Shown: one piece after another, positions 1-41,858 of the stretch | Numbering within the stretch: position 1 is the stretch's first letter | Layout: every line of letters starts with the position of its first letter | Origin: an uncultured Verrucomicrobiota bacterium | GTDB taxonomy: Bacteria > Verrucomicrobiota > Kiritimatiellia > RFP12 > UBA1067 | NCBI GenBank assembly: GCA_946613265.1 | Contig: CAMOFK010000002.1 | Coordinates: 33,817-97,816, forward strand | DNA length: 64,000 nt | Reading direction: 5' to 3' | Program-made: the position numbers and the translations under genes | Notes under the pieces: model-generated | The model's database searches: none | What the model was told of the DNA's origin: nothing | The model's input: the letters and a program-made list of their open reading frames with translations, nothing else

Positions 1-3000
1 GGCGAATGCGTCTCGGTCGATACGGTGGCGACGGAGGAAGTCCGCACGCTTTATGCGAAGTGGCATGAGGAAATCGTGCTTTCCGGGCTGACGATTCTCG
101 GGCCTGCGGCGCTGACCTCCGAAGAGAGCGCGGCGTATTCATGCCGCGCGAACTACTCCGACGGCAGCGTGTCGGCCGTACAGGCGGATTGGAGCATTGT
201 CGCCGGCGGCGATGCCGCCGCCGTGGATGCCTCCGGCGTCGTCACGGCCGGCGCGGTTGTCGAAGCGAAGACGGCGGTGCTGCGCGCGGAGTTCTCGTCT
301 CTCGCGGCGACTGTATCCATCGCCGTGCGCCCGCGCACCGTGGAAGTCGCGTTCGAGGCGAACGGCGGCGAATGCGCCGAAGCCTCGCGAATCTATATCG
401 TCGGCGCGCGCTATGGCGCACTGCCAAGCGCCGTGCGCGAAGGGTGGCGCTTCGCCGGCTGGTGGACGGCTGCGGAGGCGGGCGAGAGGATTCTCGAATC
501 GTCCGAAGTCTCCGCCGCCGTGACGCGCCTCTACGCACATTGGGAAGAAACGGAGCCGGAGCTTCTCGGCATTGCAATCTCCGCGCAGGAAGGGGAAGCC
601 TCGGTGAAGAGCGGCGAGACGCTGATGCTCGCATGCACCGCGACATGGTCGAAGGGCGGCGAAACCGTTCAGAGCGCTCTCAACGGTTCGGAGGTCGCAT
701 GGCGCACGGACGACGCGCTCGCCGGAACGGTGGCGCCGGGCGGTCTTTTCAGCGCCGGTTTCGTGACCGCGCGGGCGATCTGCAATGTCGTCGCGGAATA
801 TGAGGGCGTGGAATCCGCGCCGCTGGCGATATGGGTGGAGCCGGAGAAAGCGACGGTTGCATTCCATGCGAACGGCGGCACGGTTTCGCCTGCGAGCGCC
901 GAGTACACGGTCGGTCTCGCCTACGGAACGCTCCCGGTGCCGGTGAACGGCGGGGACTACATTTTCGAAGGCTGGTTCACCGCTCTCGAGGGCGGCGCGA
1001 GAGTGACCGAAGAGACGATCTGCGAAAAGACCGTCGCCGCGCTCTATGCGCATTGGGCGAAGAAGGTTGTTCTCGAGGCGCTGGCGATTTCCGGCCAGAG
1101 CGTAGTCACGTCCGGCGTCGCATGCGCCTATAGTGCAACGGGGATTTACTCCGACGGTTCGGCGCTGCCGCTGACAGCCTGCGAGTGGGCGGTCGAGAGC
1201 GCGGAACAGGGCGCGTTCGCCGGAGATGGCGTCTTTACCGCGGCGTTCGTGCCCGGCGAGACGCGCGCAGTTGTCATCGCGAACCACGGCGGCGTGGAAG
1301 GGCGTCTTGAAATCCTCGTCGAGCCTCTCGAAGTTTCCGTGCGTTTCGATCCTTGCAACGGCGTCGTCCGCCCGGAACGCATGGCGTTCATCGCCGGTTC
1401 CGCCTATGGAGAATTGCCAACGCCCGTGCGCAGCCGTTACGATTTCGACGGCTGGTGGACGCGCGAGGCGAAGGCCGGCGAAAGAATCGAGGCGTCTTCG
1501 ATCGTCGAGCCTTCGGTCGATATTCTCTACGCCGGTTGGACGCCGGTGCAGACTACTCTGACGGGAATACGGATCGAAGGCCCGGAGACGATTACATCCG
1601 GCGGCTTCGCCGTGCTGACCTGCAAGGCGGTGTATTCGGACGGGAGCGAGGGGAGCGTCGTTCCGCAGTGGAGCCTTGTCGGCGGTCTCGATTACGCCAG
1701 TCTCACGGCAGGCGGCTATCTAGAGGCGGTGGAAGTGGATTCTGCACGCAGCGTTTCCGTTCAGGCAGTTTATACGTACAAGGGCGTGCGCTACGAAGAT
1801 TCGCACGCAATCGCGATCGTTCCAGGCACGCTGGCCGTCGATCCCCACGCGCTTTCCCTCGAAGCCGGCGAGCAGACCGCAGCCATCACGATCGACGCAT
1901 GGGGCGCCTGGACGGCGCGCACGGATGCCGGTTGGCTGACGCTCGAAAAGACTAGCGGCGCCGGTTTCGGCGAGCTGAAGTTCGCTGTCTCGGCGAACGA
2001 AGGCGCCTCGGAGCGCATTGCGACAATCACGGTGACGGACGGCGCTCTCGAAGATACGTGCGTAGTCAAGCAGTTCTCGCCCGTCCCGGACGAATACGTT
2101 TCCGTGACGCTCTGGCCGGAGATCAAAGGTCAGGGCGCGACGCAGCGCCAATATATCAAGGGACGGAAGTTCGGCTACCTGCCTACGCCCGTCCGGCAGG
2201 GCTATGCTTTCGGCGGATGGTGGACGAAGAAAGGCGGCAAGGGCGAGAGAGTCCACGCCATGTCCATAGTCACGGACGAAACGAAGACGCTTTACGCCTA
2301 TTGGGCTGACGTGAGCGTGGCGTATGCGCTGAACAACGCCCTCGATTGGGTCGAAGACGCCGCAAAGCCGTGGAAGTTCGACTACGCCGACGCTGTCGAC
2401 CGTAAAGTCGCGATGGTCTCTCCCAATCTCGGCAATGGCGAGGCATCCTCGCTGCGCGTCATCCTCGAAGGCCCTGGTGACATCTGTTTCTACTGGAAGA
2501 CTTCCAGCGAGCGCTATTTCGACACGCTCGCCTTCTACATCGACGGCAGATTCATTGCGGCCATCGACGGCGAGACGCCGTGGACGCGGCTCGTGCACGC
2601 CGTCGAGGGTTTCGGCCAGCATGTCCTCGAATGGCGCTATGCCAAGGACGGACAGGGCGCAGACGGAATGGATGCGGCATGGCTGGACATGGTGACATGG
2701 TCGCCAGACTATGGCGCGAACGGCATTGCAAGCATCCAAGGCGCGGGAGGCCGTTCGGTCCCCGAAAGCTGGCTTAACGCATACGGCCTCGAAACTACGC
2801 CACATGCGCTCGATGACGACGCCGACGGCGACGGCATGTCGAACTGGGCGGAGTATGTCGCCGGGACGGATCCTGCCGATGCCGAATCCAAGCTCCAAGT
2901 CTTCATAAACTTCGACGAAGACGGGCTCCCGGTGATAGAGGCGTTCCCCGATCTCGGCGATACGGCAAACCGCCGCTACATCCGCGAAGGGCGTGCCGAG

Positions 3001-3087
3001 CTGGGGTCTGACGAAGAAGGCTGGGAACCGGCCGACGAGACTATCCACCGCTTCTTCCGCGTTCGCATCGAAAAAAGCGAAGAATGA
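1..3087 (+). CDS. Surface protein, 5'-truncated at the window edge; frame open from nt 1. Repeated Listeria-Bacteroides (Flg_new / InlB B-repeat) modules, Ig-like regions, and a C-terminal Ca-binding-like DxDxDG motif followed by an FFRVRIEKSEE tail.
   Basis: Repeated ~70-aa units of the form NGG..YG.LP.P.R.G..F.GWWT......I.....V.....LYA.W, which is the classic List_Bact repeat. The first unit starts before the window. C-terminus reads DDDADGDGMSNWAEYVAGTDPAD. Confidence 0.7.
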   Translation, partial: GECVSVDTVATEEVRTLYAKWHEEIVLSGLTILGPAALTSEESAAYSCRANYSDGSVSAVQADWSIVAGGDAAAVDASGVVTAGAVVEAKTAVLRAEFSSLAATVSIAVRPRTVEVAFEANGGECAEASRIYIVGARYGALPSAVREGWRFAGWWTAAEAGERILESSEVSAAVTRLYAHWEETEPELLGIAISAQEGEASVKSGETLMLACTATWSKGGETVQSALNGSEVAWRTDDALAGTVAPGGLFSAGFVTARAICNVVAEYEGVESAPLAIWVEPEKATVAFHANGGTVSPASAEYTVGLAYGTLPVPVNGGDYIFEGWFTALEGGARVTEETICEKTVAALYAHWAKKVVLEALAISGQSVVTSGVACAYSATGIYSDGSALPLTACEWAVESAEQGAFAGDGVFTAAFVPGETRAVVIANHGGVEGRLEILVEPLEVSVRFDPCNGVVRPERMAFIAGSAYGELPTPVRSRYDFDGWWTREAKAGERIEASSIVEPSVDILYAGWTPVQTTLTGIRIEGPETITSGGFAVLTCKAVYSDGSEGSVVPQWSLVGGLDYASLTAGGYLEAVEVDSARSVSVQAVYTYKGVRYEDSHAIAIVPGTLAVDPHALSLEAGEQTAAITIDAWGAWTARTDAGWLTLEKTSGAGFGELKFAVSANEGASERIATITVTDGALEDTCVVKQFSPVPDEYVSVTLWPEIKGQGATQRQYIKGRKFGYLPTPVRQGYAFGGWWTKKGGKGERVHAMSIVTDETKTLYAYWADVSVAYALNNALDWVEDAAKPWKFDYADAVDRKVAMVSPNLGNGEASSLRVILEGPGDICFYWKTSSERYFDTLAFYIDGRFIAAIDGETPWTRLVHAVEGFGQHVLEWRYAKDGQGADGMDAAWLDMVTWSPDYGANGIASIQGAGGRSVPESWLNAYGLETTPHALDDDADGDGMSNWAEYVAGTDPADAESKLQVFINFDEDGLPVIEAFPDLGDTANRRYIREGRAELGSDEEGWEPADETIHRFFRVRIEKSEE

Positions 3088-3188
3088 GGAAGGAGCGAGG
3101 GTGGCGGAAACGGGGGACGGGGCGTTTGACGCGCGCCGTTTCAATCCGCAACCAAATTCCCCGCCGCGCGCCGCGCGGCAGGGAATTT

Positions 3189-3197
3189 TGGTATAAT
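3189..3197 (+). promoter_or_regulatory. Extended -10 element TGGTATAAT, 18 nt upstream of the smc ATG; implies a short or near-leaderless mRNA.
   Basis: Perfect TGnTATAAT. The same TATGGTATAAT word recurs before several other transcription units in this window. Confidence 0.45.
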
Positions 3198-3214
3198 ATA
3201 CGGCAATTCGAGAA

Positions 3215-6200
3215 ATGTACCTTAAGCAACTAGACATACTGGGATTCAAGAGTTTCGCGGACAAGACGCGCTTGACGTTCGAGCCGGGGCTTGTCGCGAT
3301 CGTCGGGCCGAACGGCTGCGGCAAGTCGAACGTGTCCGATGCGATTCGCTGGGTGTTGGGCGAGCAGAAGCCTACGGCGCTGCGCTGCTCCAAGCTTGTC
3401 GATGTCGTATTCAACGGCACGGACACGCGAAAGCCGCTGGGGCTTGCCGAAGTCTCCATCACGTTCGCCGATTGCGAGAAAGAGCTTGGTACCGATTTCC
3501 ACGAAGTGACCGTGACGCGGCGCGTGTACCGCGACGGTTCCGGCGAGTACCTGATCAACAAGAAGCCGAGCCGCCTCAAAGACGTGCAGCACCTTTTCAT
3601 GGGCACGGGCATCGGGACGTCGTCGTATTCGGTGATGGCGCAGGGGCAGATAGACGCCATCCTGTCTTCGAAGCCCGAGGACCGGCGCGCGGTTTTCGAG
3701 GAGGCCGCCGGTATCACGAAGTTCAAGGCGGACCGCAAGGACGCGCTGAGGAAAATCGAGCAGACCGAGCAGAATCTTCTTCGAGAAGCGGACGTCCTGC
3801 GCGAAATGAAGCGCCAGATCGGCTCCCTGCAGCGCCAGGTTGGCAAGGCGCAGAAGTACAAGGAGCTTCGCGACGAGCTGCGCGGTCTGGACATCTACGT
3901 CTCGAAGCAGCACATACGCGAATTCGATAGCGTGCTGGAAGAGAACGCGCGCAACCGCCGCGAGATGGAAGATGCGATAGCCGAGGCGAGCGAATCGGTA
4001 GCCGCCGCCGAAGCTGCGCAGCAGGCATTGCACGCGGAAATCCACGCCTTGGAAGAGCGTTTGCAGACGCTGGCTCAGCAGGAGGCTTCCGCATCGGGGG
4101 CGTATGCGCGTGCACAGGAAGTAATCGGCGTGAATGCGCAGCGCATCGCCGAGTACAGATCCTTCGCGGAGCGCGACGGCAGGGAGATCGCGGATACGCG
4201 CCGCCAGCTCGAAGAAGTCAAGATGCAGATGGAGTCGCTCGAGCAGAAGACGCGCCTGCTTTCCGAGTCGCTGGACGCGGCGAAGGCGGCTCTCGAAGAA
4301 GCGGAGGCGGCTTTCAAGGCGTCGCAGGCGACGATCGACGAAATGCGCCTGCGCACGCAGACTTCGCGCACGGAGAGCGTGCAGTGCGACAGGCGGGCGG
4401 CGGAAATCCGCGACGAGATCGCGCGTCTGGAAGGCGCGGAGCGCGAGGCGATCATGCGCTGCGAGCGCTTGAACGCCGACAAAGCGCAGCTCTCCGGAGC
4501 GGCGGAAGCGTCGCGCGCGGCGCTTGGCGAGATACGCGAGAAGGCGGCGGCCGCGCGCGCGTTGGAGAATGCGGGCGAGGAAGCCGTGCTCGCCGTGAAG
4601 ACAGAGCTTGACGCTTTGCGCGAGAAGATCGAGCACGCCCGCGATTCGCTCGGCGAAATGCAGCGTTCGGCGGCGGCGAAAGAAGCGCAGCTCGAAATGC
4701 TCAAGGACGAGGCGAAAGCGAAAGTCGCGCTCGAGGCGGCGCTGCAAAACGAGTGCGGCGCCGTGCGCATCGTCGCGCAGGAGCTTTCCAAGGGGGCGGT
4801 GCATGATGGCGACAGGCTTCTCGATCGCCTCGCGCCCCCGCAGGAAGAAGGCGCCGGCGAAGCCGTCGATCCGGTGCTGGAGGATTTGCTTGGCGACGTA
4901 GTGCTTGTGGGCGGCGAAGGAGGCGTCTGGCGCCCGAAAACGGGCATCGCGTCTTCGAGCGGAAGAATGTCGCCGATAACGGAAGCGGAAATGGCGCTCT
5001 CGAAGCTGCGCACGGAAATCGCGGAGGCGAAGGACGTCCTGGCCAACGGCGCGGGGAGAATCAAGGAACTCGCCGCGCGGCATGCGGAAGCCGAGGCGCG
5101 CCTGGCGGAAGCGCGGCGCGCCGCCGCGCAGTGCGAAGGCGAGGAAGCGATGGCGCGGCGCGATGCCGAGGCGCTCGATGCGCGCCTTGCCAAGGTCGCC
5201 GCCGAATTCGCGGCGGCGAAGAAAGCCACGGCGGACGGCGCGGAGCGCCGAAAGGTTCTCGCCGCCGAGCTGGAAGAGACGCTGGCGCGGCGCGATGCGC
5301 TGATGGACGCGATGGCGGAGATGCAAGAGACTCTGCGCACTCTGGAGACGGAGAGCGTGACGGAGTCGCAGCGGCTCACGGAGCGGAGAATCGCCGCCAG
5401 CCAGATGGAGCAGGAGCTTTCGTTCGTCGGGCGCCAAGGCGAAGGCGCGCGCGACCGCCGCGACGAGCTGGAGAGGCAGCTCGAAGGACGCGAGAGCGGC
5501 ATACGCGGCTATGAGGACTCGATACGCCGCCTTACCGAGGAAAGCGGCGATCTGCTGGACAGCCTCGATGAATTGAAGACGCGCGCGGAATCCATGCGCG
5601 CCATGATGGACGCCGAGCGCGCAAAGCGCAGCGGCATGATGGAGCGAATCACCGCCGCGGACCGCGAAGTCGCGGCGAAGCGCAGCGGCCTCGACCAGGC
5701 GAGGGACTTCCGCGGCAAGCTCGAAGTACAGGCGGCGGAGGCGACGATGCGCCGCCAGAACATCTACGACCACTTGAGCGACGAGTACGGGCTTTTCGCG
5801 GACGCCGTGCTGCACGAGCCGGATCCGGCGTGGAAGGGGGGCGTCGCGCCGCCCGTGCAGGAGCTGGAGGCGACCGTCGCGCGCCTGCAGGCGGACATCG
5901 CGGCGCTCGGCCCAGTGAACATGGTCGCGATCGACGAATGCCGCGAGCTGGAAGAGCGCTATTCCCGCGAGAAGGCGCAAGAGGCGGATTTGATCGCCGC
6001 CAAGGCGCAGATACTCGAGCTGATAAACACGCTCAACACGACATCGTCGGAAATGTTCCGCAAGACGTTCTCGCAGGCGAACGAGAATTTCCAGGCGATG
6101 TTCACAAAGCTTTTCGGCGGCGGCGAGGCGAGGCTGGTGCTGCTGGAAAACGCTGAGGATCCTCTCGAATGCGGCATCGACATCATCGCGCGCCCGCCCG

Positions 6201-6523
6201 GCAAGCGTCCGCAGTCCGTGACGCTGCTTTCCGGCGGCGAGAGGACGATGACCGCCGTGGCGCTGCTCTTTTCGATATTCTTGATCAAGCCGGCGCCGTT
6301 CTCGATGCTCGACGAACTCGACGCCGCGCTCGACGACGCGAACATCGGGCGCTTCGTCGAGCAGCTCAAGGAGTTTCTCGTCAAGTCGCAGTTCCTCATC
6401 ATCACGCACAACCAGCACACCATCGCCGGCGCCGATCTCGTATATGGCGTGAGCCAGCAGGAGAAGGGCGTAAGCCGCGTTATTTCGATGAAACTCTCCG
6501 ATCTGGGGGTAAAGGAGAAATGA
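3215..6523 (+). CDS. smc: Chromosome segregation protein SMC
   Basis: N-terminal Walker A FKSFADKTRLTFEPGLVAIVGPNGCGKSN. Long coiled-coil middle. C-terminal signature LSGGERTMTAVALLFSIF...LDELDAALD. 1102 aa. Confidence 0.95.
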   Translation: MYLKQLDILGFKSFADKTRLTFEPGLVAIVGPNGCGKSNVSDAIRWVLGEQKPTALRCSKLVDVVFNGTDTRKPLGLAEVSITFADCEKELGTDFHEVTVTRRVYRDGSGEYLINKKPSRLKDVQHLFMGTGIGTSSYSVMAQGQIDAILSSKPEDRRAVFEEAAGITKFKADRKDALRKIEQTEQNLLREADVLREMKRQIGSLQRQVGKAQKYKELRDELRGLDIYVSKQHIREFDSVLEENARNRREMEDAIAEASESVAAAEAAQQALHAEIHALEERLQTLAQQEASASGAYARAQEVIGVNAQRIAEYRSFAERDGREIADTRRQLEEVKMQMESLEQKTRLLSESLDAAKAALEEAEAAFKASQATIDEMRLRTQTSRTESVQCDRRAAEIRDEIARLEGAEREAIMRCERLNADKAQLSGAAEASRAALGEIREKAAAARALENAGEEAVLAVKTELDALREKIEHARDSLGEMQRSAAAKEAQLEMLKDEAKAKVALEAALQNECGAVRIVAQELSKGAVHDGDRLLDRLAPPQEEGAGEAVDPVLEDLLGDVVLVGGEGGVWRPKTGIASSSGRMSPITEAEMALSKLRTEIAEAKDVLANGAGRIKELAARHAEAEARLAEARRAAAQCEGEEAMARRDAEALDARLAKVAAEFAAAKKATADGAERRKVLAAELEETLARRDALMDAMAEMQETLRTLETESVTESQRLTERRIAASQMEQELSFVGRQGEGARDRRDELERQLEGRESGIRGYEDSIRRLTEESGDLLDSLDELKTRAESMRAMMDAERAKRSGMMERITAADREVAAKRSGLDQARDFRGKLEVQAAEATMRRQNIYDHLSDEYGLFADAVLHEPDPAWKGGVAPPVQELEATVARLQADIAALGPVNMVAIDECRELEERYSREKAQEADLIAAKAQILELINTLNTTSSEMFRKTFSQANENFQAMFTKLFGGGEARLVLLENAEDPLECGIDIIARPPGKRPQSVTLLSGGERTMTAVALLFSIFLIKPAPFSMLDELDAALDDANIGRFVEQLKEFLVKSQFLIITHNQHTIAGADLVYGVSQQEKGVSRVISMKLSDLGVKEK

Positions 6524-6530
6524 CGGGCGG

Positions 6531-8261
6531 ATGATGCAATGGATAAAGCAGCCGGGAAACACTCTCATAGCGCAATCGTCCATCGGCCATCTTGCAGGTA
6601 TTTATCCATTTCTTCTCACGGCGGACCGGGCGGCGGATGCAAAGGATGACAGCTTCAAAGAGAACGATGATGCAATGACAAGTGAAAATCCAGACAGAAA
6701 GAATTTCGGTCAATATTTCACGCCAAGAGATATTGCATCGTTTATGCTGGATCTTTCGCAAACATCGGCAAATGCAAAAGTTCTCGAACCATCATCTGGC
6801 GAAGGCGTGTTCTTGAATCTGCTGGAAGAACGCGGCTATGGCGACTTGCTTGCTTTCGAGATCGACCCTGGATTGGCGCGTGAGCGCAGATGTGTCAGAT
6901 GCGAAAGTTTTGTCAGCGCGGAATTGCCGCATGATTTCGATCTAGTCATCGGGAATCCGCCGTATATCCGTTGGAAAAATCTGACGCAAGAATTCAAGGA
7001 CGAACTGGCGGAAAATTTCCTGTGGCAAAAGCATTTCAACTCGTTGTGCGACTACGCCTGCATTTTCATGCTGAAAGGAGTGGAAGTCCTCAAGGAAGGA
7101 GGTGAACTGATATTCATCTGCCCCGAATATTGGATGAATACTACTCACGCGATTTCGCTCCGCAATTATTTGCTTGACCATGGATATTTTTCCGACATAT
7201 ACATTTTCAATGAAGCGCCTATTTTCAAAGGCGCAACGGTTTCGTCCGTCGTTTTCCGGTTCGTCAAAACCACGGCGAAGGAAAAACCGGCAATGCGCAT
7301 TGCAAAATTTGTCAAAAAAAGGAACATAGACAGCGACATATTGAAGAAACTTCAAAAACGAGAGCCTGTAAGCGATGTCGAGTATCTGGAACTCCCGCAA
7401 TTTGGAATTGGAGAACGCTGGGTGTTTGCCGCCAAGGAAGAAGCCGGCCGATTGAAGAGTTTGATGAAATCATGCCGGGCCGCAGATCAAAGCGCCTGTC
7501 TCGGCAACGATTATGCCATTGCCGCAACCGTCGGAGATGTATGCGATATTGGCAACGGAATGGTGAGCGGCTTGGACAAAGTCTTCCAGGTGCCCGGCGA
7601 CTTGCCTTTGACGAAAGACGAGCAGCACGATTCGATATGGGTTTACAAAGCAAAAGACCTGTCGCCTTATTTCGCGCTGCAGCCAACGCGATATGTCTAT
7701 GTCCCAGAAAACATAACCGAAGAATCAGAGTTTGAAAGATTGTATCCGCACTTCCACTCACTGATGAAACCATGTGCCGGACAACTTGACAGACGATACC
7801 AGTATAACAGCCGCATCCCGTATTGGCAATGGTGCTTCAAGCGAAACGAGAAGCTATTCTCTAGAAAAGAACCACGCATATTTGTGCCATGCAAAGAACG
7901 TATTTCGGCAAAATCATTTGTCCGTTTTGCTTTGGCAGACTCCGGCTTTTATCCCACGCAAGACGTCTCCGCCCTGTTCCGCAAGGAAAAGACCAAAGAA
8001 TCGATAGAATATATTCTTGCATATCTAAACCATCCACTTGTATTCAAATGGATAAAATACTATGGAATATCCAAGGGTAATATCGTGGAGTTTTCCGAAA
8101 AGCCGCTTTCCAGCATACCTTTCCGGAAAATAAATTGGGAGAATGAACGCGAAAGAGCGGCCCATGAAAGAATTACCGCATTAGTCAAAGAGTTGCTGGA
8201 CGAAAGAAAACCATCGCTGATTCGCGACATAAACGAACAATTCGAGGAGTTGCTGAAATGA
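6531..8261 (+). CDS. Gamma-class N6-adenine DNA methyltransferase (TaqI / Eco57I-like) with a C-terminal target-recognition region. A later start at 6675 (MTSENP...) is possible.
   Basis: Motif I VLEPSSGEGVFL and motif IV NPPYIRW in gamma order, with FTPRDIASFM upstream. The gene is about 43-45% GC against about 65% for its neighbours. Confidence 0.85.
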   Translation: MMQWIKQPGNTLIAQSSIGHLAGIYPFLLTADRAADAKDDSFKENDDAMTSENPDRKNFGQYFTPRDIASFMLDLSQTSANAKVLEPSSGEGVFLNLLEERGYGDLLAFEIDPGLARERRCVRCESFVSAELPHDFDLVIGNPPYIRWKNLTQEFKDELAENFLWQKHFNSLCDYACIFMLKGVEVLKEGGELIFICPEYWMNTTHAISLRNYLLDHGYFSDIYIFNEAPIFKGATVSSVVFRFVKTTAKEKPAMRIAKFVKKRNIDSDILKKLQKREPVSDVEYLELPQFGIGERWVFAAKEEAGRLKSLMKSCRAADQSACLGNDYAIAATVGDVCDIGNGMVSGLDKVFQVPGDLPLTKDEQHDSIWVYKAKDLSPYFALQPTRYVYVPENITEESEFERLYPHFHSLMKPCAGQLDRRYQYNSRIPYWQWCFKRNEKLFSRKEPRIFVPCKERISAKSFVRFALADSGFYPTQDVSALFRKEKTKESIEYILAYLNHPLVFKWIKYYGISKGNIVEFSEKPLSSIPFRKINWENERERAAHERITALVKELLDERKPSLIRDINEQFEELLK

Positions 8262-8551
8262 ACTCTTTTGTGGATTTCAATGCCATCGGCAATATTGTGC
8301 GCGGGCTTGCAGTCCCCAAACCCTTGTCTGGCACTTTGTCTGGACATGCAGCAGGCGAGCCGTTCGACAAAGCTGTTTACAACGAGCTCAAAAAGGTTTA
8401 TGGAGACAGGATTTTCAGGCAATACGAGTACCTCAACTTCAATTCTATGTCGCGGACTGCGACCAGACATTTTCAGAAGGCCGAGAAAGATGGGCGAGGG
8501 ATTATCTTCGGCATTTCGTCGCAGAGGCCGAAAGAAGAGTGTCATATATGA
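8258..8551 (+). CDS. Small 97-aa ORF translationally coupled to the methyltransferase (ATGA overlap). Possibly the remnant of a cognate restriction endonuclease.
   Basis: The start overlaps the methyltransferase stop. Same low GC. Weak PD...ELK-like stretch (EPFDKAVYNELKK). Too short for a functional type II REase. Ends in an AT-rich junction before ileS. Confidence 0.35.
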   Translation: MNSFVDFNAIGNIVRGLAVPKPLSGTLSGHAAGEPFDKAVYNELKKVYGDRIFRQYEYLNFNSMSRTATRHFQKAEKDGRGIIFGISSQRPKEECHI

Positions 8552-8631
8552 TTGAAACATTCGTAGAGCCGTTCAAGAAATACATCTGATATCTTCTGGC
8601 AATATTTCACAAAAACAACGAAAACGCGAAA

Positions 8632-11600
8632 ATGTACAAGGCAGTATCCAACAAGGTGGCGTTCCCGGAGATGGAGGAGGAGATCCTCGCATTCTGGGAG
8701 AAGGACGGGACGTTCAAGAAGTCGCTCGCGAAGAATGCGGGCAAGGAGCGCTATAAATTTTACGACGGCCCTCCTTTCGCGACGGGATTGCCGCACTACG
8801 GGCATCTTCTCGCCGGGACGATCAAGGATATCGTGCCGCGCTACCAGACGATGCGCGGCAAGTATGTCGAGCGCCGTTTCGGCTGGGACACCCACGGGTT
8901 GCCGATCGAAGCGCTCGCGCAAGAGGCGCTGGGCGTCTCCGGGGCGCACGAGATAAAGTCCATCGGCATCGACAAGTTCAACGAGCAATGCCGTTCGATG
9001 GTCTTGAAGTACGTCGGCGAATGGCGCAAGACTGTGACGAGGATGGGGCGCTGGGTCGATTTCGACAACGACTACAAGACGATGGATCCGTCGTTCATGG
9101 AGACTATCTGGTGGGTCTTCAAGCAGTTGTGGGAGCAGGGCAGGGTGTACAAGTCCCATCGCATCATGCCGTATTCCTGGAAGCTTTCGACGCCGCTTTC
9201 GAATTTCGAGGCCGGCTCGAACTACAAGGACGTGCAGGATCCTGCCGTGACGGTGCGGGCGAAGGCCGTGCCTTCTTCGATCTCCATCGATTGCCTCAGG
9301 GAGGAAGCGGCGCCCGTGTATCTGCTGATCTGGACGACGACGCCGTGGACGCTTCCGGAGAATCTGGCGATCTGCGCCGGCGCCGGCATCGACTATGTGG
9401 CCGTGCGCGATCTTACGGACGCAGGAAAGCCGGTGTACGTCATGGCGAAGGCGCGGCTGGATTCGATATTCAAGAAGCCCGGGCAGTGCGAGACCGTCGC
9501 GGAGTTCAAGGGGCTTTCCCTCAAGGGCTGGAAATACGAGCCGATCTTCCCGTACTTCGCCGCGAAGGAGGCGGAAGGCGCATTCACCGTCCTCAACGAC
9601 GACTACGTGACCACCGGTGACGGCACGGGCCTCGTGCATATCGCACCGGCCTATGGCGAGGACGACTTCCGCGTCTGCAAGGAAAACGGGATAACGGCAT
9701 TCGCCGATCCGCTCGACGAAGCCTGCGCGTTCACTTCGGCCGTCCCGGAATACGCCGGGCGCTTCTGCAAGGATTGCGACAAGGACATAATCAAGCGCCT
9801 GAAGGCCGAAGGCAAGCTCGTCCACCAGGCGACGATCGTGCACTCCTATCCGTTCTGCGACCGCACCGACACGCCGCTCATCTACCGCGCCATCGACGCC
9901 TGGTACGTGCGCGTCGAGGATTTGCACGACCGCCTCGCGGAGAACAACGCCACCGTGCACTGGACACCGGACTACGTGGGCGACAAGCGCTTCGGGAACT
10001 GGCTGAAGGACGCGAGAGACTGGAACATCTCGCGCAACCGCTTCTGGGGCAGCTGCATTCCCGTTTGGGTGAATGTCGATGATCCTCGGGATATGATATG
10101 CGTGGGCAGCGTCAAGGAGCTGGAGGAGCTTTCCGGCGTCAAAGTCGCCGATCTGCACAAGCATTTCGTGGACAAGATCGTCATCGTGCGCGACGGCAAG
10201 ACGTACCGGCGCACGCCCGAAGTCCTGGACTGCTGGTTTGAATCCGGCTCCATGCCATACGCCCAGCAGCACTACATGGGCGAGGGCGATACTGCGGAAT
10301 TCTTCCCGGCGGACTTCATCGCGGAAGGCCTCGACCAGACGCGCGGGTGGTTCTACACGCTCATGCTGCTCGGCACGATGCTCTTCGGCAAGTCGCCGTA
10401 CAGGAACGTCGTCGTCAACGGGCTGGTGCTCGCCGAGGACGGCAAGAAGATGTCCAAGCGCCTGAAGAACTATCCCGATCCCACGAAGATGCTGGACACG
10501 TACGGCGCGGACGCCATCCGCCTCTACATGATCTACTCTCCGGTGGTGCGCGCGGAGAATCTCAAGTTCTCCGAAAGCGGCGTGAAGCAGCTGATGCGCG
10601 ATTTGCTCATACCGTGGTGGAACGCCTACTCGTTCTTCGTGACGTACGCGAATGTCGATGGCTTCAACGAGCCGGAGATTGCGCCGCCCGGCTCCGCGAA
10701 CGTCCTGGACAAGTGGATCGTTTCTTCGATGGAGACGCTGATAGCCGATGTGACGGCGGCGATGGACGGCTACGATCTCCAGCGCTCCGTGCGGCCGTTC
10801 GTGAAATTCGTCGAAGACCTCACCAACTGGTACATCAGGCGCTCGCGCCGTCGCTTCTGGAAATCGACGAACGACGGCGACAAGCTTTCCGCGTACCGCA
10901 CGCTGCGCTACGTGCTCGTGCAGCTCGCGAAAGTCGCAGCGCCGTTCACGCCGTTCATCGCCGAAGAGATTTTCCGGAATCTGCGCGGCGCGGGCGATCC
11001 CGGCAGCGTGCATCTCTGCGACTTCCCGGAGGCGAACGCGGCCGCGCGCGACCTCGCGCTGGAGCGCCGCATGGCCGCCGTGCAGACCGTTGTCGAACTC
11101 GGCAGGCGCCTCAGATCCGACAACGATCTCAAGGTAAGGCAGCCGCTGGCGGCGATCCGTTTCTCCGGCGCTGATGTCGAAGGCCTGGAGGAGCTGATCG
11201 CCGACGAGCTGAACGTCAAGGCCGTCGAATACGTCGCCGACGAAAAGGCGCTTTGCAACGTCTCCTTCAAGGCGAACTTCAAGACGCTCGGCAAGAAGTG
11301 TGGAGCGAAGATGAAGGCGGTGGCGGCGGCGATCGCTTCTTCCGGCGCCGAAGGGCTGGGCGTGAAGACGGTTGTTCTCGAAGGCGTCGAAATCGAGCCG
11401 GAGGATGTGATAGTCACGCGCTCGCCGAAGGCCGGCCTCGTCGTCGCTTCGGAAGGCGCGGTCGTCGTGGCGCTCGAGACGGCGCTGACGCCCGCGCTCG
11501 TCGCGGAAGGGCTGGCGCGCGAATTCGTGAGCCACGTGCAGTCGATGCGCAAGGAGGCGGATTTCGAAGTCGTGCAGCGCATCGCGCTTCGCGTGGAGTG

Positions 11601-15882: not shown

Positions 15883-17400
15883 ATGAAGCTGGATTTTGCT
15901 AGACATGCCAAGCGGAATATGGTGGCGGCGTTCTTGAACAGCGGCGTCCGTCTCGTCTTTCCGTTTCTGAACCGCACGCTTTTTCTGTGGCTGCTCGGCC
16001 CGGAGTATCTCGGCCTGAACGGCCTCTTCGGCTCCATACTCGGCATGCTGATGCTGGCGGAGCTGGGCTTCGGCATCGCCGTCATATCTTCGATGTACAA
16101 GCCGGTCGCCGATGACGACCACGAGCTTGTCTGTGCATATCTGGCGTTCTACCGCACGATATACCGGTGGGTGGGGGCGGCGGTCTTCACGATCGGCCTC
16201 TGCCTGATGCCGTTTCTGCGGCAGCTCGTGCATGGCGAGGTCCCTGCGGATATCAACTTGCACGTACTGTATTTCATCCATCTCGTCAACGTGGCGACGA
16301 GCTATTTCCTCTTCGCCTACCGCGGCTCGGTGCTTGGCGTGCACGCCCGCAAGGATGTGATCACCCACATCGGCACCTGCGTCTCCGTCGCGCAGTACAT
16401 AACCGTGTTCTTGATTCTGTTCTTGACGCGCAACTACTACTATTACGTGATCGCGACGGTGGCGTTCACAGTGGTGCAGAATCTCTCGCTGTACTGGGCT
16501 TCGAACAAGCTCTTCCCGCACATCCAGCCTTTCGGGAAACTCGATGCGGCGCGCCGCCGCGCCGTCGTCTCCGATGTAAAGGCGGTATTCATGCACAAGA
16601 TCGGCGGCGTCGTCACGAACTTCGCCGACAATCTCGTGATTTCGTCTTTCCTAGGCCTCGTCGCGGTCGCCGCCTACGGCAACTATTATTATGTGCTTAC
16701 GTCCGTCGGCGGACTGGTCGCGGCGGTGTATTCGTCGATGCTGGGCGGCTTCGGCAACAAGATACACACGGAGTCGAAAGAGGACAACTTCCGTCTCTTC
16801 ATGAAGGCCAACCACCTCGTCCTCACGGTCGCGATGTGGTGCGCGGCGATGATGGCCGCGCTCTACCAGCCTTTCATATCGGTTTGGACGCGCGACAATC
16901 CGCAGCTGGCGCGCCACGCGCTCACGCCCGTTTTGATGGTGCTGTTCTTCTATGTGGCGCAGTCGCGCCAGATTCTCCAGACATTCAAGACGGCCGCGGC
17001 GCTCTGGAAAGCCGACAGGTGGAGCCCGTTCGTCACGGCGCTCCTGAATCTCGGCGTCAATATCGCGCTCGTTCTTCTGCTTCCGGAAGCCTACAAGCTC
17101 GACGGCGTGATATTCTCGACGATATTCTCGTACGTCCTCGTCCAGATTCCTTGGGAAACGCGCGTGCTCTTCACGAAATTCTTCGACGGCGCCGAGGCGC
17201 TCAAGTATCTGCGCATGCAGGGCGTGTTCGCCGCGCAGGCGCTAGCCGTGTGCGCGCTGACGTGGGCGGCCGCACGCGTCGTCTCGCTCGACGGCGTTGC
17301 GGGATTGGCCGCGAAGGGGGCGGTTGCGGGAGCCGCCGCCACGGCGCTTGTCGCGGCGCTGCACGGCAAGGCGCTGCTCGGGATGCTGCGCAGGAAATAA
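15883..17400 (+). CDS. wzx: Polysaccharide biosynthesis protein / oligosaccharide flippase (Wzx/RfbX family)
   Basis: 12-14 TM helices. N-terminal signature NMVAAFLNSGVRLVFPFLNRTLFLWLLGPEYLGLNGLF…SMYKPVADDD…YLAFYRTIY is typical of PF01943. Confidence 0.8.
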   Translation: MKLDFARHAKRNMVAAFLNSGVRLVFPFLNRTLFLWLLGPEYLGLNGLFGSILGMLMLAELGFGIAVISSMYKPVADDDHELVCAYLAFYRTIYRWVGAAVFTIGLCLMPFLRQLVHGEVPADINLHVLYFIHLVNVATSYFLFAYRGSVLGVHARKDVITHIGTCVSVAQYITVFLILFLTRNYYYYVIATVAFTVVQNLSLYWASNKLFPHIQPFGKLDAARRRAVVSDVKAVFMHKIGGVVTNFADNLVISSFLGLVAVAAYGNYYYVLTSVGGLVAAVYSSMLGGFGNKIHTESKEDNFRLFMKANHLVLTVAMWCAAMMAALYQPFISVWTRDNPQLARHALTPVLMVLFFYVAQSRQILQTFKTAAALWKADRWSPFVTALLNLGVNIALVLLLPEAYKLDGVIFSTIFSYVLVQIPWETRVLFTKFFDGAEALKYLRMQGVFAAQALAVCALTWAAARVVSLDGVAGLAAKGAVAGAAATALVAALHGKALLGMLRRK

Positions 17401-17418
17401 CTGCACGGAGACTGACGC

Positions 17419-18510
17419 ATGGCGGAATCTGCTGGAGAGAAGACGGAGATGCCGACGCCCAAGAAGCTGCGCGACGCGCGGCAGAAGGGGCAGGTCTGCT
17501 CTTCCAAAGACATCGTCTCCACAGCCATACTCATCGTTCTCTTCTGCGTGCTCGGCTGGATGGGGGTCGCGCTGATGGACGATTCCGGCAATCTCCTGCG
17601 GCTTGTGGGCGCGTCCGTCGAAAAGAACGACATGTTCGGGCTGGGCGAGACGATGAAGCTTACGGCGTTCACGATATGCAAGCATTCCTTCATATTCGTG
17701 ATCGTCGCGGCGGTCATCGGCGTCGTGGGGAACGTGGCGCAGATAGGCTTCCTTTTCACTTTCGAGCCGATCGTCCCGAAGCTGGAAAAGCTCAACCCGG
17801 TAGAAGGCGCGAAGAAAATCTTCTCTATGAAGAATCTTTTCGAGTTCCTGAAAAACGTCGTCAAGGTCACTTTCCTCGGATACCTCGTATATAAGATCAT
17901 ATTGGCCAGCGTCCCGGAGCTGCTTACGATGTGCTACGGCACGCTGGACGACATCTTCCCCTGCCTGCGGCTGATGCTGAAACGCATGGCCATCTATACG
18001 GCCTTCGGGTATATCGTGATAGCGATTGTCGATCGCATCTTCCAGGGCAAGAATTTCACCAAGCAGATGATGATGACGAAGGACGAAGTCAAGCGCGAAT
18101 ACAAGGAGATGGAAGGCTCCGCGGAAGTCAAGCAGGCGCAGCGCCAGTTCCGCGACGAACTCCTCAACGGCCCAGACCCCGCCGCCGCTGCGAAGAAATC
18201 TGATGTCGTCGTCACCAACCCGACGCATCTGGCGGTCGGCATACGCTACGATGTCGAGGAAGCGCCGCTGCCGCGCATATGCGCGGCGGGCGCCGACGAT
18301 GTCGCGAAAATCATCCGCGAGACGGCTCTCGCGGAAGGCATACCGGTAATGGAGGACGTGCCGCTTGCGCGCGCCCTCTACGCCGGCGGCAAGGTGGAGG
18401 AATTCGTCCCCGAGGCGCTTCTCGAGCCTGTCGCCGAAGTCCTCAAGTGGGCGAAAGCCATCAAGGAAGCAAAGAAGGAAGAAGATGAATTGGACAGCGT
18501 GACGATCTGA
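17419..18510 (+). CDS. flhB: FlhB/YscU/EscU-family type III secretion export-apparatus switch protein
   Basis: N-terminal EKTEMPTPKKLRDARQKGQV. Four TM helices. KLNPVEGAKKIF motif. NPTH autocleavage site (VVVTNPTHLAVGIRY) and C-terminal PLARALY. Confidence 0.9.
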   Translation: MAESAGEKTEMPTPKKLRDARQKGQVCSSKDIVSTAILIVLFCVLGWMGVALMDDSGNLLRLVGASVEKNDMFGLGETMKLTAFTICKHSFIFVIVAAVIGVVGNVAQIGFLFTFEPIVPKLEKLNPVEGAKKIFSMKNLFEFLKNVVKVTFLGYLVYKIILASVPELLTMCYGTLDDIFPCLRLMLKRMAIYTAFGYIVIAIVDRIFQGKNFTKQMMMTKDEVKREYKEMEGSAEVKQAQRQFRDELLNGPDPAAAAKKSDVVVTNPTHLAVGIRYDVEEAPLPRICAAGADDVAKIIRETALAEGIPVMEDVPLARALYAGGKVEEFVPEALLEPVAEVLKWAKAIKEAKKEEDELDSVTI

Positions 18511-18604: not shown

Positions 18605-19102
18605 ATGACAATAGAAGAGCATTACGCGGCCATCGCGCCGCGCCTCACAAACTGGCTCGTCTCCACCGGCAGCCGGTATGAAGACGCCTGCGACCTCGTG
18701 CAGCAGGTTTTTCTGAAGCTCTGGAAGATGCGCGACGATCTTCGCGACAGCGACGCGGCCGTTTCCGGGCTGGCGTTCACTATGGCGAAGAATCTGCGGA
18801 AGAACGCCATCCGCGACGACAGCAGAATCACCTTCAAAGAGGAGATTCTCGAAGAAGACGCGGGCAGCGCCACCACAGGCATGATGCCTTCCGACAACGC
18901 ATATCTGCGAAAGCGCCTCAATGCCGCGTTCGCGAAGCTGCCGCCGAATCTTCGCGAGGCGTACACCCTTTTCCAGGTCGGCGAGCTTTCCATACGCGAG
19001 ATCGCGCACGAGACGGGCGTAAGCGAAGGCCTTGTCAAAGTCCGCATTCACCGCGCAAAAGAAAAATTGCGCGAAATTCTCGCCGACCTTGTAACCTTTT
19101 AG
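18605..19102 (+). CDS. ECF-type RNA polymerase sigma-70 family factor
   Basis: Region 2 (DLVQQVFLKLWKMRDDL) and a region 4 HTH (LSIREIAHETGVSEGLVKVRIHRAKEKLR), 165 aa. Confidence 0.8.
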   Translation: MTIEEHYAAIAPRLTNWLVSTGSRYEDACDLVQQVFLKLWKMRDDLRDSDAAVSGLAFTMAKNLRKNAIRDDSRITFKEEILEEDAGSATTGMMPSDNAYLRKRLNAAFAKLPPNLREAYTLFQVGELSIREIAHETGVSEGLVKVRIHRAKEKLREILADLVTF

Positions 19103-19135: not shown

Positions 19136-19405
19136 ATGAAACTAGATTTCAACATATCGCAAAACACGTATGCGGCGAACGCCGCCAACTTCGCCGCGAC
19201 TGCGCGCGCCGATTCGGCCGATGCGGCCGCGAAGACGGCCGCGACGCCGGCGCAGGGCTTCTCGATAACCGAGCGCGCAGCGTCGCCGGAGGATATAGAG
19301 GCGGCGAGAATACCGGAAACCGCGCTCGCGCGCGACGATGCGCTCGGCCGTCTGGTGTCCAGCGCATACAACCTGCCTGCGCCGCCCATGCCGGCGTTTG
19401 TCTGA
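19136..19405 (+). CDS. Hypothetical 89-aa Ala-rich protein downstream of the ECF sigma gene; a possible anti-sigma partner (speculative).
   Basis: GGAGA RBS 9 nt upstream. No TM segment and no recognisable domain. Confidence 0.3.
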   Translation: MKLDFNISQNTYAANAANFAATARADSADAAAKTAATPAQGFSITERAASPEDIEAARIPETALARDDALGRLVSSAYNLPAPPMPAFV

Positions 19406-19550
19406 GTGCGCGGCGGCGCGCCGCGTCCTCTCCCCCCGGGCAAGGAGAAGGGCGGCGCGTGGCGGCGGTTGCGCGGGCGCGCGGCGCGATGGCCGCGGGA
19501 GGGGACTCCGGAAGATTTCTTGAAAACACGAAAGGACGGAAAATAAATAG

Positions 19551-29124: not shown

Positions 29125-29916
29125 TCACTTCGCGAGATCTTCAATGACGATCTGCGCGATCCTGCGGCCGCTCTTCAGCATTCCGCCGAAGATCGGCCCC
29201 ATGCGGAAGCCGCCCTGCGTATTGTTCGCGGCCATGCCGCTCGCGTACAGGCCGGGGTAAAGGCGCTTGGTGTTCGCGACGGTGGTGCGCTCGCCGTCCG
29301 CCATCCACATCGGGCGCTCGCCGAGAATTCCGCCGGTCGGCGAATCGATTTTGACGCCCGCCTTGTGCACCGCCTTGTTGACGATTTCGCTGGGGTGCCC
29401 GGTGCCGTCGATGAGCGCGCGCGAAGTGACGACGATGGGATCGACGTGCATTTCAAGCCTTGCCACAGGGTTCCAGTTTATCACTACTCCGGAGACTACG
29501 CCATCGTGCATCACGATATCTTCCACCTTGACGGTGTTGAAGATGACGGCGCCCGCCTTGCGCGCGCCAAAGATCAGCCCGGAAGCCATCTCGACCGAAT
29601 CCACGGTGTGGTACTGCCCGTCGTACTGGCGCGTGGAAATCCCGAATTCATGGAGAATTTCCGCCGCATCGTTCTGCACGGTCACTTCGTTGAAGAGCAT
29701 TCCGCCGCCCCACGTGCCGCCGCCGGGCGCAAGCTTCGATTCATACACGGCGACCTTCAACCCGGCCTTGGCAAGATCGTGCGCGGCGACAAGCCCGCTC
29801 GGCCCCGCTCCGACGATCGCCACATCGACCGCGAGATTGTTCTCCAGCTTCTCGAAAAAGCGGCGTATGATCGCGCCGCTGATAGTCTCTTCCATTACGG
29901 AAGTCTTGGTGTCCAT
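29125..29916 (-). CDS. thi4: Thi4-family thiazole synthase (archaeal/eukaryotic type)
   Basis: [29 protein letters not shown]…[14 protein letters not shown]-binding pattern of the Thi4/THI1 family. 263 aa. Confidence 0.85.
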
Positions 29917-29929
29917 TTTTTGCTTCTTT

Positions 29930-30016
29930 CTTCTCCCTACGCCGGCATTACCCGGTTCAGGTTATTCGGGTATTTTCTCAGCAGTGCCGGCACCTCGCCG
30001 GCACAGCACCCCGTCG
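29930..30016 (-). promoter_or_regulatory. TPP riboswitch (THI element) in the thi4-thiE leader
   Basis: Minus-strand RNA reads …ACGGGGUGCUGUGCCGGCGAGGUGCCGGCACUGCUGAGAAAAUACCCGAAUAACCUGAACCGGGUAAUGCCGGCGUAGGGAGAAG… This has the GGGGUGC, CUGAGA, ACCUGA…GG…UAAUGCC…GCGUAGGGA core. The SD (GGGAG) lies in the 3' P1 strand just before the thi4 ATG. Confidence 0.8.
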
Positions 30017-30022
30017 CGATAC

Positions 30023-30031
30023 ATTATACCA
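30023..30031 (-). promoter_or_regulatory. Extended -10 TGGTATAAT driving the riboswitch-thi4-thiE transcript
   Basis: Reverse complement of attatacca, immediately upstream of the riboswitch 5' end. Confidence 0.45.
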
Positions 30032-30154: not shown

Positions 30155-30232
<78 letters not shown>

Positions 30233-33215: not shown

Positions 33216-33810
33216 GGGGAGGCGACAAGCGCCGCTCCGGCTCCCGAACCCGCAGACCGCGGCTACGCATCCCGCGCACCGTGCAAAGACCTGCCGCGGG
33301 CTGACACGCCCGCTCCCAAGGGGAAGTGGCGCAGAAAAGGCGACAAAGTTGCTTTATTCTGGCAGATATAGTGCATAGAAGGGGAGGAGTTTTTGCTAGT
33401 TTCGTACCATTGGGAAGCTGGGATAAGAGAAGGTGAAAAAATCTTCGGGGCGTTCCGTTGCCCATTGACGGGGGCAAAAAGAATATGATAAAATATGCCG
33501 CAACTTGGGTATAGTAGGTATGGTTGGTTATATTGAATATGTCGCAACAGACGAAATAACGTCTCTTACGAGGCGTTTCCAACCTTGCCCCCCACTCCCC
33601 CCTCGAACAATACGCACATATGCGCGGTGTTTTGCGTCGCGAGCCATTTGCCGGCGGTAGCCACGACTTCAAAATGACACGTGACGCGTTCATACCGAGC
33701 AGAGTTTCGCAACGCCCGTCCAGGCGCGTATTCCTTTCTTCGCCCTGGCATCGTCGTCGCGAGTGCGGACGGCGCAGGAACTATTTCCAATTACAAGAGG
33801 CATGAACATT

Positions 33811-34674: not shown

Positions 34675-34676
34675 CA

Positions 34677-36392: not shown

Positions 36393-36468
36393 AACCGGAA
36401 GTGCGCCGCCGTTCCAATCCGGCTCCGGCGGCGACCGGCGGCAATTGAACACAATAAGGACTAAGACG

Positions 36469-37287: not shown

Positions 37288-37317
37288 CCGCGGCATATAA
37301 GGAAAGAGGGCAGCATT

Positions 37318-40803
<3,486 letters not shown>

Positions 40804-40805
40804 GG

Positions 40806-40870
40806 GTTGAAAGGTTGAAAAGTGCGTAGCGACGACGCCTCGTCGTCGGAATAAAAGTTGAAAGGTTGAG
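40806..40870 (+). repeat. Junction motif GTTGAAAGGTTGAAAAG, then an 8-bp-stem hairpin (CGACGACG-cct-CGTCGTCG), then a second GTTGAAAGGTTGAG copy
   Basis: Read directly from the sequence. The same word recurs at 41829, 44425 and 46039. Confidence 0.8.
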
Positions 40871-40903
40871 GATGAAAAGCGAGTGCCAGAGAAGGGAGGT
40901 CGC

Positions 40904-41836: not shown

Positions 41837-41852
41837 AAGGATTGAAAGGAAA
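41829..41852 (+). repeat. Variant junction motif GATTTGAAAGGATTGAAAGGAAAC directly before the GLUG-protein start
   Basis: Direct read. Confidence 0.6.
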
Positions 41853-41858
41853 CAACCA

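Follow-up and report, generated by a model that had tools for sequence, protein, structure and literature searches.

A Ysc-family sctU gene separated from its type III secretion operon and joined to a flippase gene in a Kiritimatiellia bacterium is probably still functional

[quoted passage not shown] The reading that we favor, with a probability of about 0.78, is that this is a functional Ysc-family gene, orthologous to the sctU of related bacteria, which was cut from its operon, and that the remaining apparatus genes are located elsewhere in the genome. The gene is ordinary in kind and its placement alone is unusual. As the switch subunit, SctU cleaves itself, binds to the SctRST export gate and sets the substrate specificity.

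17419 to 18510, forward strand: sctU, 363 amino acids (aa), ATG start; export-apparatus switch protein of a Ysc-family injectisome.

An earlier note on this DNA had described a full-length gene of the FlhB/YscU family with an EKTE N-terminus, four transmembrane helices and an NPTH motif, and the Pfam match, hydropathy and motif positions agreed with it. The protein matched Bac_export_2 (PF01312) over residues 6-344 (E=5.6e-104). Its N-terminus, MAESAGEKTEMPTPKKLRDARQKGQV, carried the EKTEMPTPKKL motif, four Kyte-Doolittle hydrophobic segments were located at approximately residues 26-56, 81-115, 147-165 and 190-208, and NPTH occupied residues 267-270. The codon-position guanine-cytosine (GC) content of the gene was like that of the surrounding genes. 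The family named in the note was therefore right, but the ambiguity between its two members did not hold: the NCBIfam SctU equivalog TIGR01404 scored 379.3 bits, above its cutoff of 358, whereas the FlhB equivalog TIGR00328 reached 304.6 bits, below its cutoff of 349.25.

The same architecture was found in YscU, AscU and PscU, namely an N-terminal motif, four transmembrane helices, a linker and an NPTH autocleavage domain, and the identity to YscU and AscU was 40-43% over 93% of the length. Among annotated plasmid-borne homologs, Aeromonas AscU was the best (42.6%), followed by Yersinia YscU (~40%); Desulfovibrio SctU (38%), Ralstonia HrcU (35%), FlhB (34%) and Shigella Spa40 (32%) were weaker. 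When the cytoplasmic domain was compared with PDB, YscU scored 117 bits, PscU 114, EscU 86, FlhB 65, CdsU 43 and SpaS 37. Judged from these comparisons, the product is assigned to injectisome SctU, not FlhB, and to the Ysc family, not the chlamydial one.

It is barely credible that the gene is a flagellar FlhB paralogue (or, as considered with the junction below, part of an assembly chimera). FlhB shares the Pfam family, the fold, the NPTH motif and the role of a substrate-specificity switch, and full-length FlhB chains gave the top PDB scores (179 bits), but this was because PDB holds no full-length YscU chain. The equivalog score argued against FlhB. Further, all orthologs were located in injectisome operons, among a secretin, a needle protein, a gatekeeper and YscK, YscO and YscP-like proteins, and flagellar genes were not seen next to them. 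No fli gene was present in the window besides the sctU family member itself.

The relatives were obtained by a scan in which a single genome stood for each GTDB species and which resulted in 80 loci with SctU proteins 65-82% identical to that of the window (these and further loci are given L numbers below). The open reading frames (ORFs) of the 80 loci were clustered and the cluster representatives annotated with Pfam. Nearly all of the loci were metagenome-assembled genomes (MAGs) labelled Kiritimatiellae/Kiritimatiellia or, by older names, Verrucomicrobia and Lentisphaerae, from rumen, other ruminant gut sites, horse faeces and human gut. The exact window SctU was recovered on a 99.9-kb ENA contig from the sheep-rumen metagenome ERZ28612944 (label SHIW14-1) and on a Logan contig.

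In approximately 50 of the 80 species, sctU was directly preceded by sctT (Bac_export_1), sctS (Bac_export_3), sctR (FliP) and a 290-aa presumed sctQ. Upstream of sctQ were sctP (HpaP/FliK-like), sctO (YscO) and sctN (the T3SS ATPase), further upstream sctL, sctK (YscK), a tetratricopeptide (TPR) protein gene and sctJ, then sctI, a gene for a YscG/HrpB1-like TPR protein and sctF (needle), and then a small ORF, sctD and sctV (FHIPEP). On contigs centred on sctN, genes for a SycN-like chaperone, for a gatekeeper in which HrpJ and TyeA are fused (sctW) and for the secretin (sctC) were also present. The resulting operon order was sctC-sctW-sctV-sctD-sctF-sctI-sctJ-sctK-sctL-sctN-sctO-sctP-sctQ-sctR-sctS-sctT-sctU, over ~17 kb and with sctU last; in L117-L122 the whole set ran in one direction without interruption, as a single operon in which the stops and starts of the genes overlapped. 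The window gene is the ortholog of these operon-embedded genes, and yet within the window it is not encoded with sctR, sctS, sctT or sctV, the other export-gate genes, as its orthologs are in those ~50 species.

The SctV protein of the relatives scored 770 bits against Yersinia YscV, 453 against SsaV and 401 against FlhA, and its C-domain scored 388 bits against YscV and 287 against chlamydial CdsV. The best PDB match of SctN was a 'type 3 secretion system ATPase', followed by EscN. Since the operon was full and SctV and SctN matched in this manner, the system of the relatives was concluded to be a complete Ysc-family injectisome rather than a chlamydia-type one. In Yersinia the genes are arranged in the yopN-yscV, virC and virB blocks, and the order in the relatives mirrored them as sctW/SycN-like/sctV, sctD-F-G-I-J-K-L and sctN-O-P-Q-R-S-T-U. 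The hosts differ, Ysc systems being those of proteobacterial pathogens and the present ones of anaerobic gut and rumen Kiritimatiellia; in addition, the window sctU is cut from sctRST, fused behind a flippase gene and followed by the gene for a sigma factor of the extracytoplasmic function (ECF) type instead of closing an operon. A full-text literature search found no paper describing a T3SS in Kiritimatiellia, and this conserved Ysc-type injectisome of at least 80 species-level lineages from ruminant and human gut is apparently undescribed.

The earlier note had suggested a dispersed, chlamydia-style T3SS, that is, a vertically inherited injectisome of the Planctomycetes-Verrucomicrobia-Chlamydiae (PVC) superphylum with natively scattered genes. 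Kiritimatiellota belong to that superphylum, and an apparatus gene lying away from the others, as sctU does in the window, is likewise a chlamydial trait. This suggestion did not survive the comparison and is very improbable: the relatives have one contiguous operon, and the proteins are far closer to Ysc, Asc and Psc than to chlamydial Cds, YscU, AscU and YscV matching far better than CdsU (43 bits for the C-domain against 117 for YscU) and CdsV. In chlamydiae, cdsU adjoins cdsV.

The autocleavage motif varied among the 81 Kiritimatiellia SctU proteins, 36 of which had NPTR in place of the canonical NPTH of the window protein (L004, L006, L007, L011, L013, L021-L023, L025-L032, L035, L036, L039-L044, L046, L047, L049-L053, L055, L057-L059 and L079). 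NPTR was patchy over the tree, and the sister loci L022 (NPTR) and L033 (NPTH) differed in it.

The immediate surroundings of sctU in the window are as follows.

15883 to 17400, forward strand: MOP-family flippase gene (Wzx-type, wzx); Pfam Polysacc_synt, 31.1 bits against a cutoff of 28.2.
17365 to 17418, forward strand: scar of the sctT 3' end; the last ~15 codons and stop of sctT with the sctU ribosome-binding site, now the 3' end of the wzx ORF plus an 18-nt spacer.
18605 to 19102, forward strand: ECF sigma factor gene; Sigma70_r2 and r4_2 domains, TIGR02937.
19136 to 19405, forward strand: orf89; product small, conserved and linked to the ECF sigma gene, a candidate for an anti-sigma factor or for a regulator secreted by the T3SS.

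The gap of 18 nt between the wzx stop at 17400 and the sctU ATG, given in the earlier note, was confirmed (3 nt in a sister strain). The adjacency of the ECF sigma gene was confirmed as well, at a distance of 94 nt from the sctU stop, not 95. The same wzx-sctU junction was found in ERZ28612944 and SRR5323048, assembled independently, and in a sister strain (L115/L116; ERZ12302853 and ERZ28612953) that is 98.6% identical to the window in sctU at the nucleotide level (1.4% divergence). As independent assemblies (at least four) and a diverged strain share it, the junction is not an assembly artefact, which speaks against a chimera.

The 54 nt preceding the sctU ATG were aligned with the sctT 3' tails of attached loci. 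The best alignment, with L004, had ~36 matches over 45 aligned positions with one 6-nt indel, in the same reading frame, and retained the TGA-CGC-ATG end of sctT-sctU together with a GGAG ribosome-binding site. A first, unanchored test of this similarity was marginal (p ~0.017). When the comparison with the sctT tails of 19 attached loci was anchored at the ATG, the score was 11, against a null with a mean of -2.6, a standard deviation of 3.0 and a maximum of 8; none of ~5000 random window segments reached 11, and other gene junctions and other detached loci scored 7 or less. In the sister strain, the wzx stop TAA was CAA, and the wzx ORF ran to the TGA at the old sctT position, so that its product ended in ...ALLGMLRRKQLHGD before the stop, compared with ...AILGPVRRLLGG in the SctT tail. 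With the anchored test and this read-through taken together, the sctT scar was considered convincing. It follows that the sctT-sctU adjacency was ancestral, that the break took place inside the last ~15 codons of sctT and that the isolation of sctU is secondary and recent rather than a native dispersal of the chlamydial kind.

Detachment of sctU was not confined to this lineage. At least 13 other species had an intact sctU without adjacent sctT, and in a neighbor-joining tree such loci were placed at 8 or more separate positions; detachment is therefore recurrent. A TGnTATAAT-like element was found just upstream of sctU in several detached loci (L003, L017, L018 and L023).

The state of the detached gene was assessed from substitutions between the two strains that share the junction. 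In sctU they differed by 13 synonymous changes and 2 non-synonymous ones (dN/dS 0.045), when ~25-44 non-synonymous changes would be expected under neutrality at the observed dS (binomial P=3.8e-7). The neighboring genes of the same strain pair gave values in the same range, 0.037 for the Na/Pi transporter, 0.081 for UvrD and 0.051 for UDPGP. Against the sister species L003, which also has no upstream sctT, dN was 0.11 and dS ~1.0. Of the 158 alignment columns at which 95% or more of the 81 SctU proteins agreed, the window protein was altered at 1, by a conservative change of L to M, and the mean number of deviations at conserved columns was 1.7 for detached and 1.5 for attached SctU. The purifying selection since the formation of the junction indicated that the detached sctU is functional.

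The earlier note had also mentioned candidate effector and chaperone modules in the window, and this was borne out at 55-64 kb by CesT genes and by homologs of genes that follow sctU, the ECF sigma gene and orf89 in relatives.

55155 to 56462, forward strand: 435-aa effector-like protein; tblastn 33% over ~320 aa, E=5e-38; no Pfam match.
56506 to 56979, forward strand: CesT-family T3SS chaperone; Pfam CesT E=8.5e-13.
57062 to 57978, forward strand: two small ORFs (158 aa and 141 aa); tblastn 48% and 69% to the pair after orf89 in L015.
58326 to 60224, forward strand: 632-aa effector-like protein; tblastn against L030 34% over 627 aa, E=5e-100; no Pfam match.
60575 to 61409, forward strand: 134-aa ORF and a CesT-like chaperone (145 aa); tblastn 47% and 55% to the pair downstream of the L058 T3SS locus.

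The homolog of the 435-aa protein was the gene directly after orf89 in L022 and L033, and the chaperone next to it was 46-47% identical to the cluster C10 chaperone that follows sctU, the ECF sigma gene and orf89 in L022, L028, L030 and L033. Homologs of the 632-aa protein were located downstream of T3SS operons in 7 relatives (L030, L026, L050 and others). The second CesT-like gene (60972-61409) had a weak precomputed CesT match. The selection on sctU, its conserved columns and the intact chaperone and effector homologs, taken together, argue that the T3SS is in use in the window organism and that sctU serves it from its new location.

We therefore proposed the following sequence of events. 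In the ancestral state, sctU would have been the last gene of one ~17-kb sct operon, translationally coupled to the ECF sigma gene and an ORF of ~90 aa. A rearrangement with a breakpoint in the last ~15 sctT codons would then have joined the trio of sctU, ECF sigma gene and orf89 to the 3' end of wzx. With its native ribosome-binding site kept, sctU would now most likely be co-transcribed and translationally coupled with wzx, and the remaining apparatus genes would be located elsewhere in the genome. Dispersal of the apparatus in this particular genome is plausible and is the state that we favor.

Several results weigh against this proposal. No further sct gene was detected in the window by tblastn with representatives of every sct family of the relatives, the only matches being SctU, the ECF sigma factor, orf89 and a CesT chaperone; sctU was thus the sole apparatus gene of the window, as the earlier note had it. 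Nor were sct genes found in the 6.8 kb past either window end on the 99.9-kb ENA contig. Searches with SctN (L045 query) and SctQ (L021 query) yielded eight candidates that were looked up (P0103, P0096, P0116, P0074, P0106, P0135, P0134 and P0123), and none came from the sctU samples (ERZ28612944, ERZ12302853, ERZ28612953 and SRR5323048). No sigma-70-like promoter exceeded shuffled expectation from wzy to orf89, hence none was identified for the detached sctU. For the orf89 product, neither a Pfam match at E<=5 (one chance hit aside) nor a PDB profile match at E<=10 was obtained, and no homolog among anti-sigma factors was detectable. A junction of the wzx body with the sctT tail in the same orientation is also the outcome expected from a deletion of the whole operon body. 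Finally, T3SS operons in the group often contain insertions or have sctT missing at its usual place, from which it follows that decay occurs in the clade.

The last two points, together with the ~78 kb of contig without further sct genes, lead to the main rival explanation, according to which the apparatus operon was lost in a single deletion that extended between the 3' ends of wzx and sctT, and the trio was left as a relic without an injectisome. The geometry is deletion-like, since the wzx body, the sctT tail and sctU lie in one orientation. The relic explanation is nevertheless unlikely, as a leftover would hardly be expected to show 13 synonymous to 2 non-synonymous changes since the junction, intact conserved columns and intact T3SS chaperone and effector-like genes. 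In addition, wzx, wzy, cstA and ileS were found upstream of sctC in none of ~19 metagenome loci with several kb of upstream sequence, although this is uninformative for the window lineage. A variant in which the apparatus was lost and SctU, the sigma factor and orf89 were kept under selection as a stand-alone signalling module is less probable still.

Rearrangements were also recorded in other T3SS loci. In a mainly human-gut clade (L065, L067, L071, L072, L075, L078, L080; L098, L101, L103-L105), what came directly after sctS was sctU or foreign genes, and as the locus had no detectable sctT, this essential export-gate gene must be elsewhere or missing. Foreign insertions were present within T3SS operons that were otherwise intact: DUF1565/Pel9A-like and TMEM43/LRR genes lay between sctS and sctU in L098 (16605-20389) and L101 (17871-21329), an IS200-type Y1 transposase between sctS and sctT in L109 (7520-7969), and a PDDEXK_3 nuclease gene after sctJ in L087 and L103 (8125-8643 in both), and a CCACCTAA-like microsatellite separated sctT from sctU in L008 (~5280-5850). 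A divergent clade (L068, L069 and L073, ~150-10000) had genes for a TPR class-II-like chaperone, an SseC-like translocator, an orf89 homolog and a 563-aa protein before sctT and, as an insertion between sctT and sctU, STAS and SpoIIE/kinase genes. The T3SS operon appears to have a rearrangement hot spot at its 3' end.

On its upstream side, sctU ends a co-directional run ileS-cstA-wzy-orf-wzx-sctU with gaps of 3-82 nt, and a scan from wzy to orf89 revealed no intrinsic terminator above shuffled expectation. The gene is most likely transcribed by read-through from the wzx unit, with the translational coupling kept from the sctT tail. The 94-nt spacer, which replaces the 4-nt overlap of intact operons, could hold a promoter for the sigma gene.

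The earlier note had seen meaning in the polysaccharide context and had raised the possibility of a repurposed paralogue; neither idea was supported. IleRS, CstA, Wzy, the 362-aa protein, Wzx, the Na/Pi transporter and others stood beside sctU only in contigs of the same lineage (L001, L002, L115 and L116). A tblastn search with the window neighbors found IleRS, CstA, Wzy and Wzx beside sctU in 0 of 80 other species, and the window neighbors were absent from 80 JGI metagenome T3SS loci centred on sctW. The polysaccharide genes next to sctU are an accident of one strain lineage. A SctU repurposed to work with the Wzx/Wzy export genes is thus highly improbable. Its proximity to wzx and probable co-transcription with it would suit such a role, but the wzx adjacency is limited to this lineage, the conservation of the protein is indistinguishable from that of operon-embedded SctU, and the linkage that was kept is that with the ECF sigma gene and orf89. 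As the window gene is an ortholog of operon-embedded sctU, 'repurposed paralogue' is unsupported.

The ECF sigma gene, which the earlier note had named as the neighbor on the other side, turned out to be no unrelated gene but a conserved partner of sctU, as it directly followed sctU in 51 of the 77 loci with enough downstream sequence; orf89 was detected after it in 42. In intact operons the sigma gene overlapped the sctU stop by 4 nt. The sigma factor is presumed to be a T3SS regulator. Proteins of the orf89 family were conserved at both ends, with M-E/D-I-N-L at the N-terminus and P..AL.RDDxLGxLV..AFNLPPPPMPxF at the C-terminus (19340-19402 in the window), and were variable and rich in Ala/Gly in between. 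The AFNLPPPPMPxF end resembles eukaryotic proline-rich ligands (LPPPP motifs of the EVH1 or profilin type) and would fit delivery into a eukaryotic cell as well as an anti-sigma role.

In many relatives a CesT-family chaperone gene came directly after orf89, and in ~13 of them STAS genes and SpoIIE-phosphatase/HATPase_c_2 fusion genes were located within 10 kb; tblastn found neither kind in the window. The Bordetella btr node includes the ECF sigma factor BtrS and, encoded next to it, the anti-sigma factor BtrA, which the T3SS secretes; BtrA secretion needs the CesT-family chaperone BtcB, and BtrU/W/V form a partner switch (PMC7498569, PMC10732220). The Kiritimatiellia loci are similar in that an ECF sigma gene is tied to a Ysc-type locus with a small gene beside it, often a CesT gene next, and STAS and SpoIIE-phosphatase/HATPase_c_2 genes near the locus in several relatives. 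They differ in that orf89 had no Pfam or PDB match, that the Kiritimatiellia phosphatase and kinase are fused in one protein and that the window has no STAS or SpoIIE genes. The parallel is one of position and domain content and serves as a lead: by analogy, the ECF sigma factor may drive T3SS genes and orf89 may be its T3SS-exported antagonist.

A search for flanking direct repeats as a mobile-element signature around the trio found none. A perfect 19-nt inverted repeat (CGCGGCCATCGCGCCGCGC) was present at 18625-18643, in the first codons of the ECF sigma gene, and at 19479-19497, in the spacer past orf89; it does not bracket sctU. It was kept in the sister strain and absent in L003, and its length was reached by 0.5% of codon shuffles.

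Elsewhere in the window, a 2717-aa giant ORF without Pfam domains (46067-54220) lay directly upstream of the chaperone and effector island; its comparison with the sister strain (49 synonymous and 7 non-synonymous changes, dN/dS 0.04) indicated strong purifying selection. Large co-directional ORFs (303, 623, 280, 1161 and 894 aa) without Pfam matches or homologs in the fetched loci occupied 33763-44429; an ORF6N-domain gene (40883-41836) breaks this run, and a GmrSD_N/HNH nuclease gene (45444-46028) comes after it. More proteins without Pfam matches were encoded within 6.8 kb downstream of the window. Positions 6531-8560, with a GC content of 0.51 compared with ~0.61 for the window, encode an Eco57I/N6_Mtase-type methyltransferase and a HincII-like endonuclease and are probably a recently acquired restriction-modification system. 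Very large surface-type proteins were encoded at 25-3087 and on the upstream contig (L083:1-9873; 2780, 623 and 2246 aa on the contig), with Listeria-Bacteroides repeats (Flg_new), BACON, LRR_5, FGE-sulfatase and Peptidase_S8 domains. A thiamine pyrophosphate (TPP) riboswitch on the reverse strand (29916-30023) ahead of thi4-thiE and a nearby tRNA-Pro(TGG) on the forward strand (30155-30231) were both ordinary.

The prevailing view of rumen and gut Kiritimatiellia is that of free-living bacteria that degrade polysaccharides. The loci described here lead one to ask into which eukaryotic cells such an anaerobic commensal of the PVC superphylum injects. In the sheep-rumen dataset of Shi et al. 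2014, the abundance of T3SS genes and transcripts was correlated with methane yield, and the T3SS genes behind this signal were taxonomically unassigned (Kamke et al. 2017, PMC5549432). Runs SRR873595-SRR873610 are part of that dataset (PMC4158751), and the T3SS-bearing Kiritimatiellia MAGs L003, L006, L034, L049, L077 and L079 derive from them; the ENA sample label of the window, SHIW14-1, suggests the same study. As T3SS-bearing MAGs come from the dataset itself, Kiritimatiellia are a concrete candidate, with a defined gene set, for part of the unassigned signal.

The apparent orphan sctU thus becomes a dated rearrangement, in which the ECF sigma gene and orf89 are the meaningful neighbors and wzx the accidental one. 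The more interesting result is the widespread and apparently undescribed injectisome of gut and rumen Kiritimatiellia with Btr-like control genes. A wider proposal, which we hold only tentatively and with somewhat less than even confidence, is that these bacteria broadly possess a complete Ysc-type injectisome with a Bordetella-like circuit, that the trio is a relocatable control cassette and that they are a main source of the methane-linked T3SS genes. If this were true, the circuit would consist of an ECF sigma factor, a small secreted antagonist and a partner switch, with the trio staying together when the operon breaks, and Kiritimatiellia would interact in a contact-dependent manner with rumen eukaryotes or the host epithelium.

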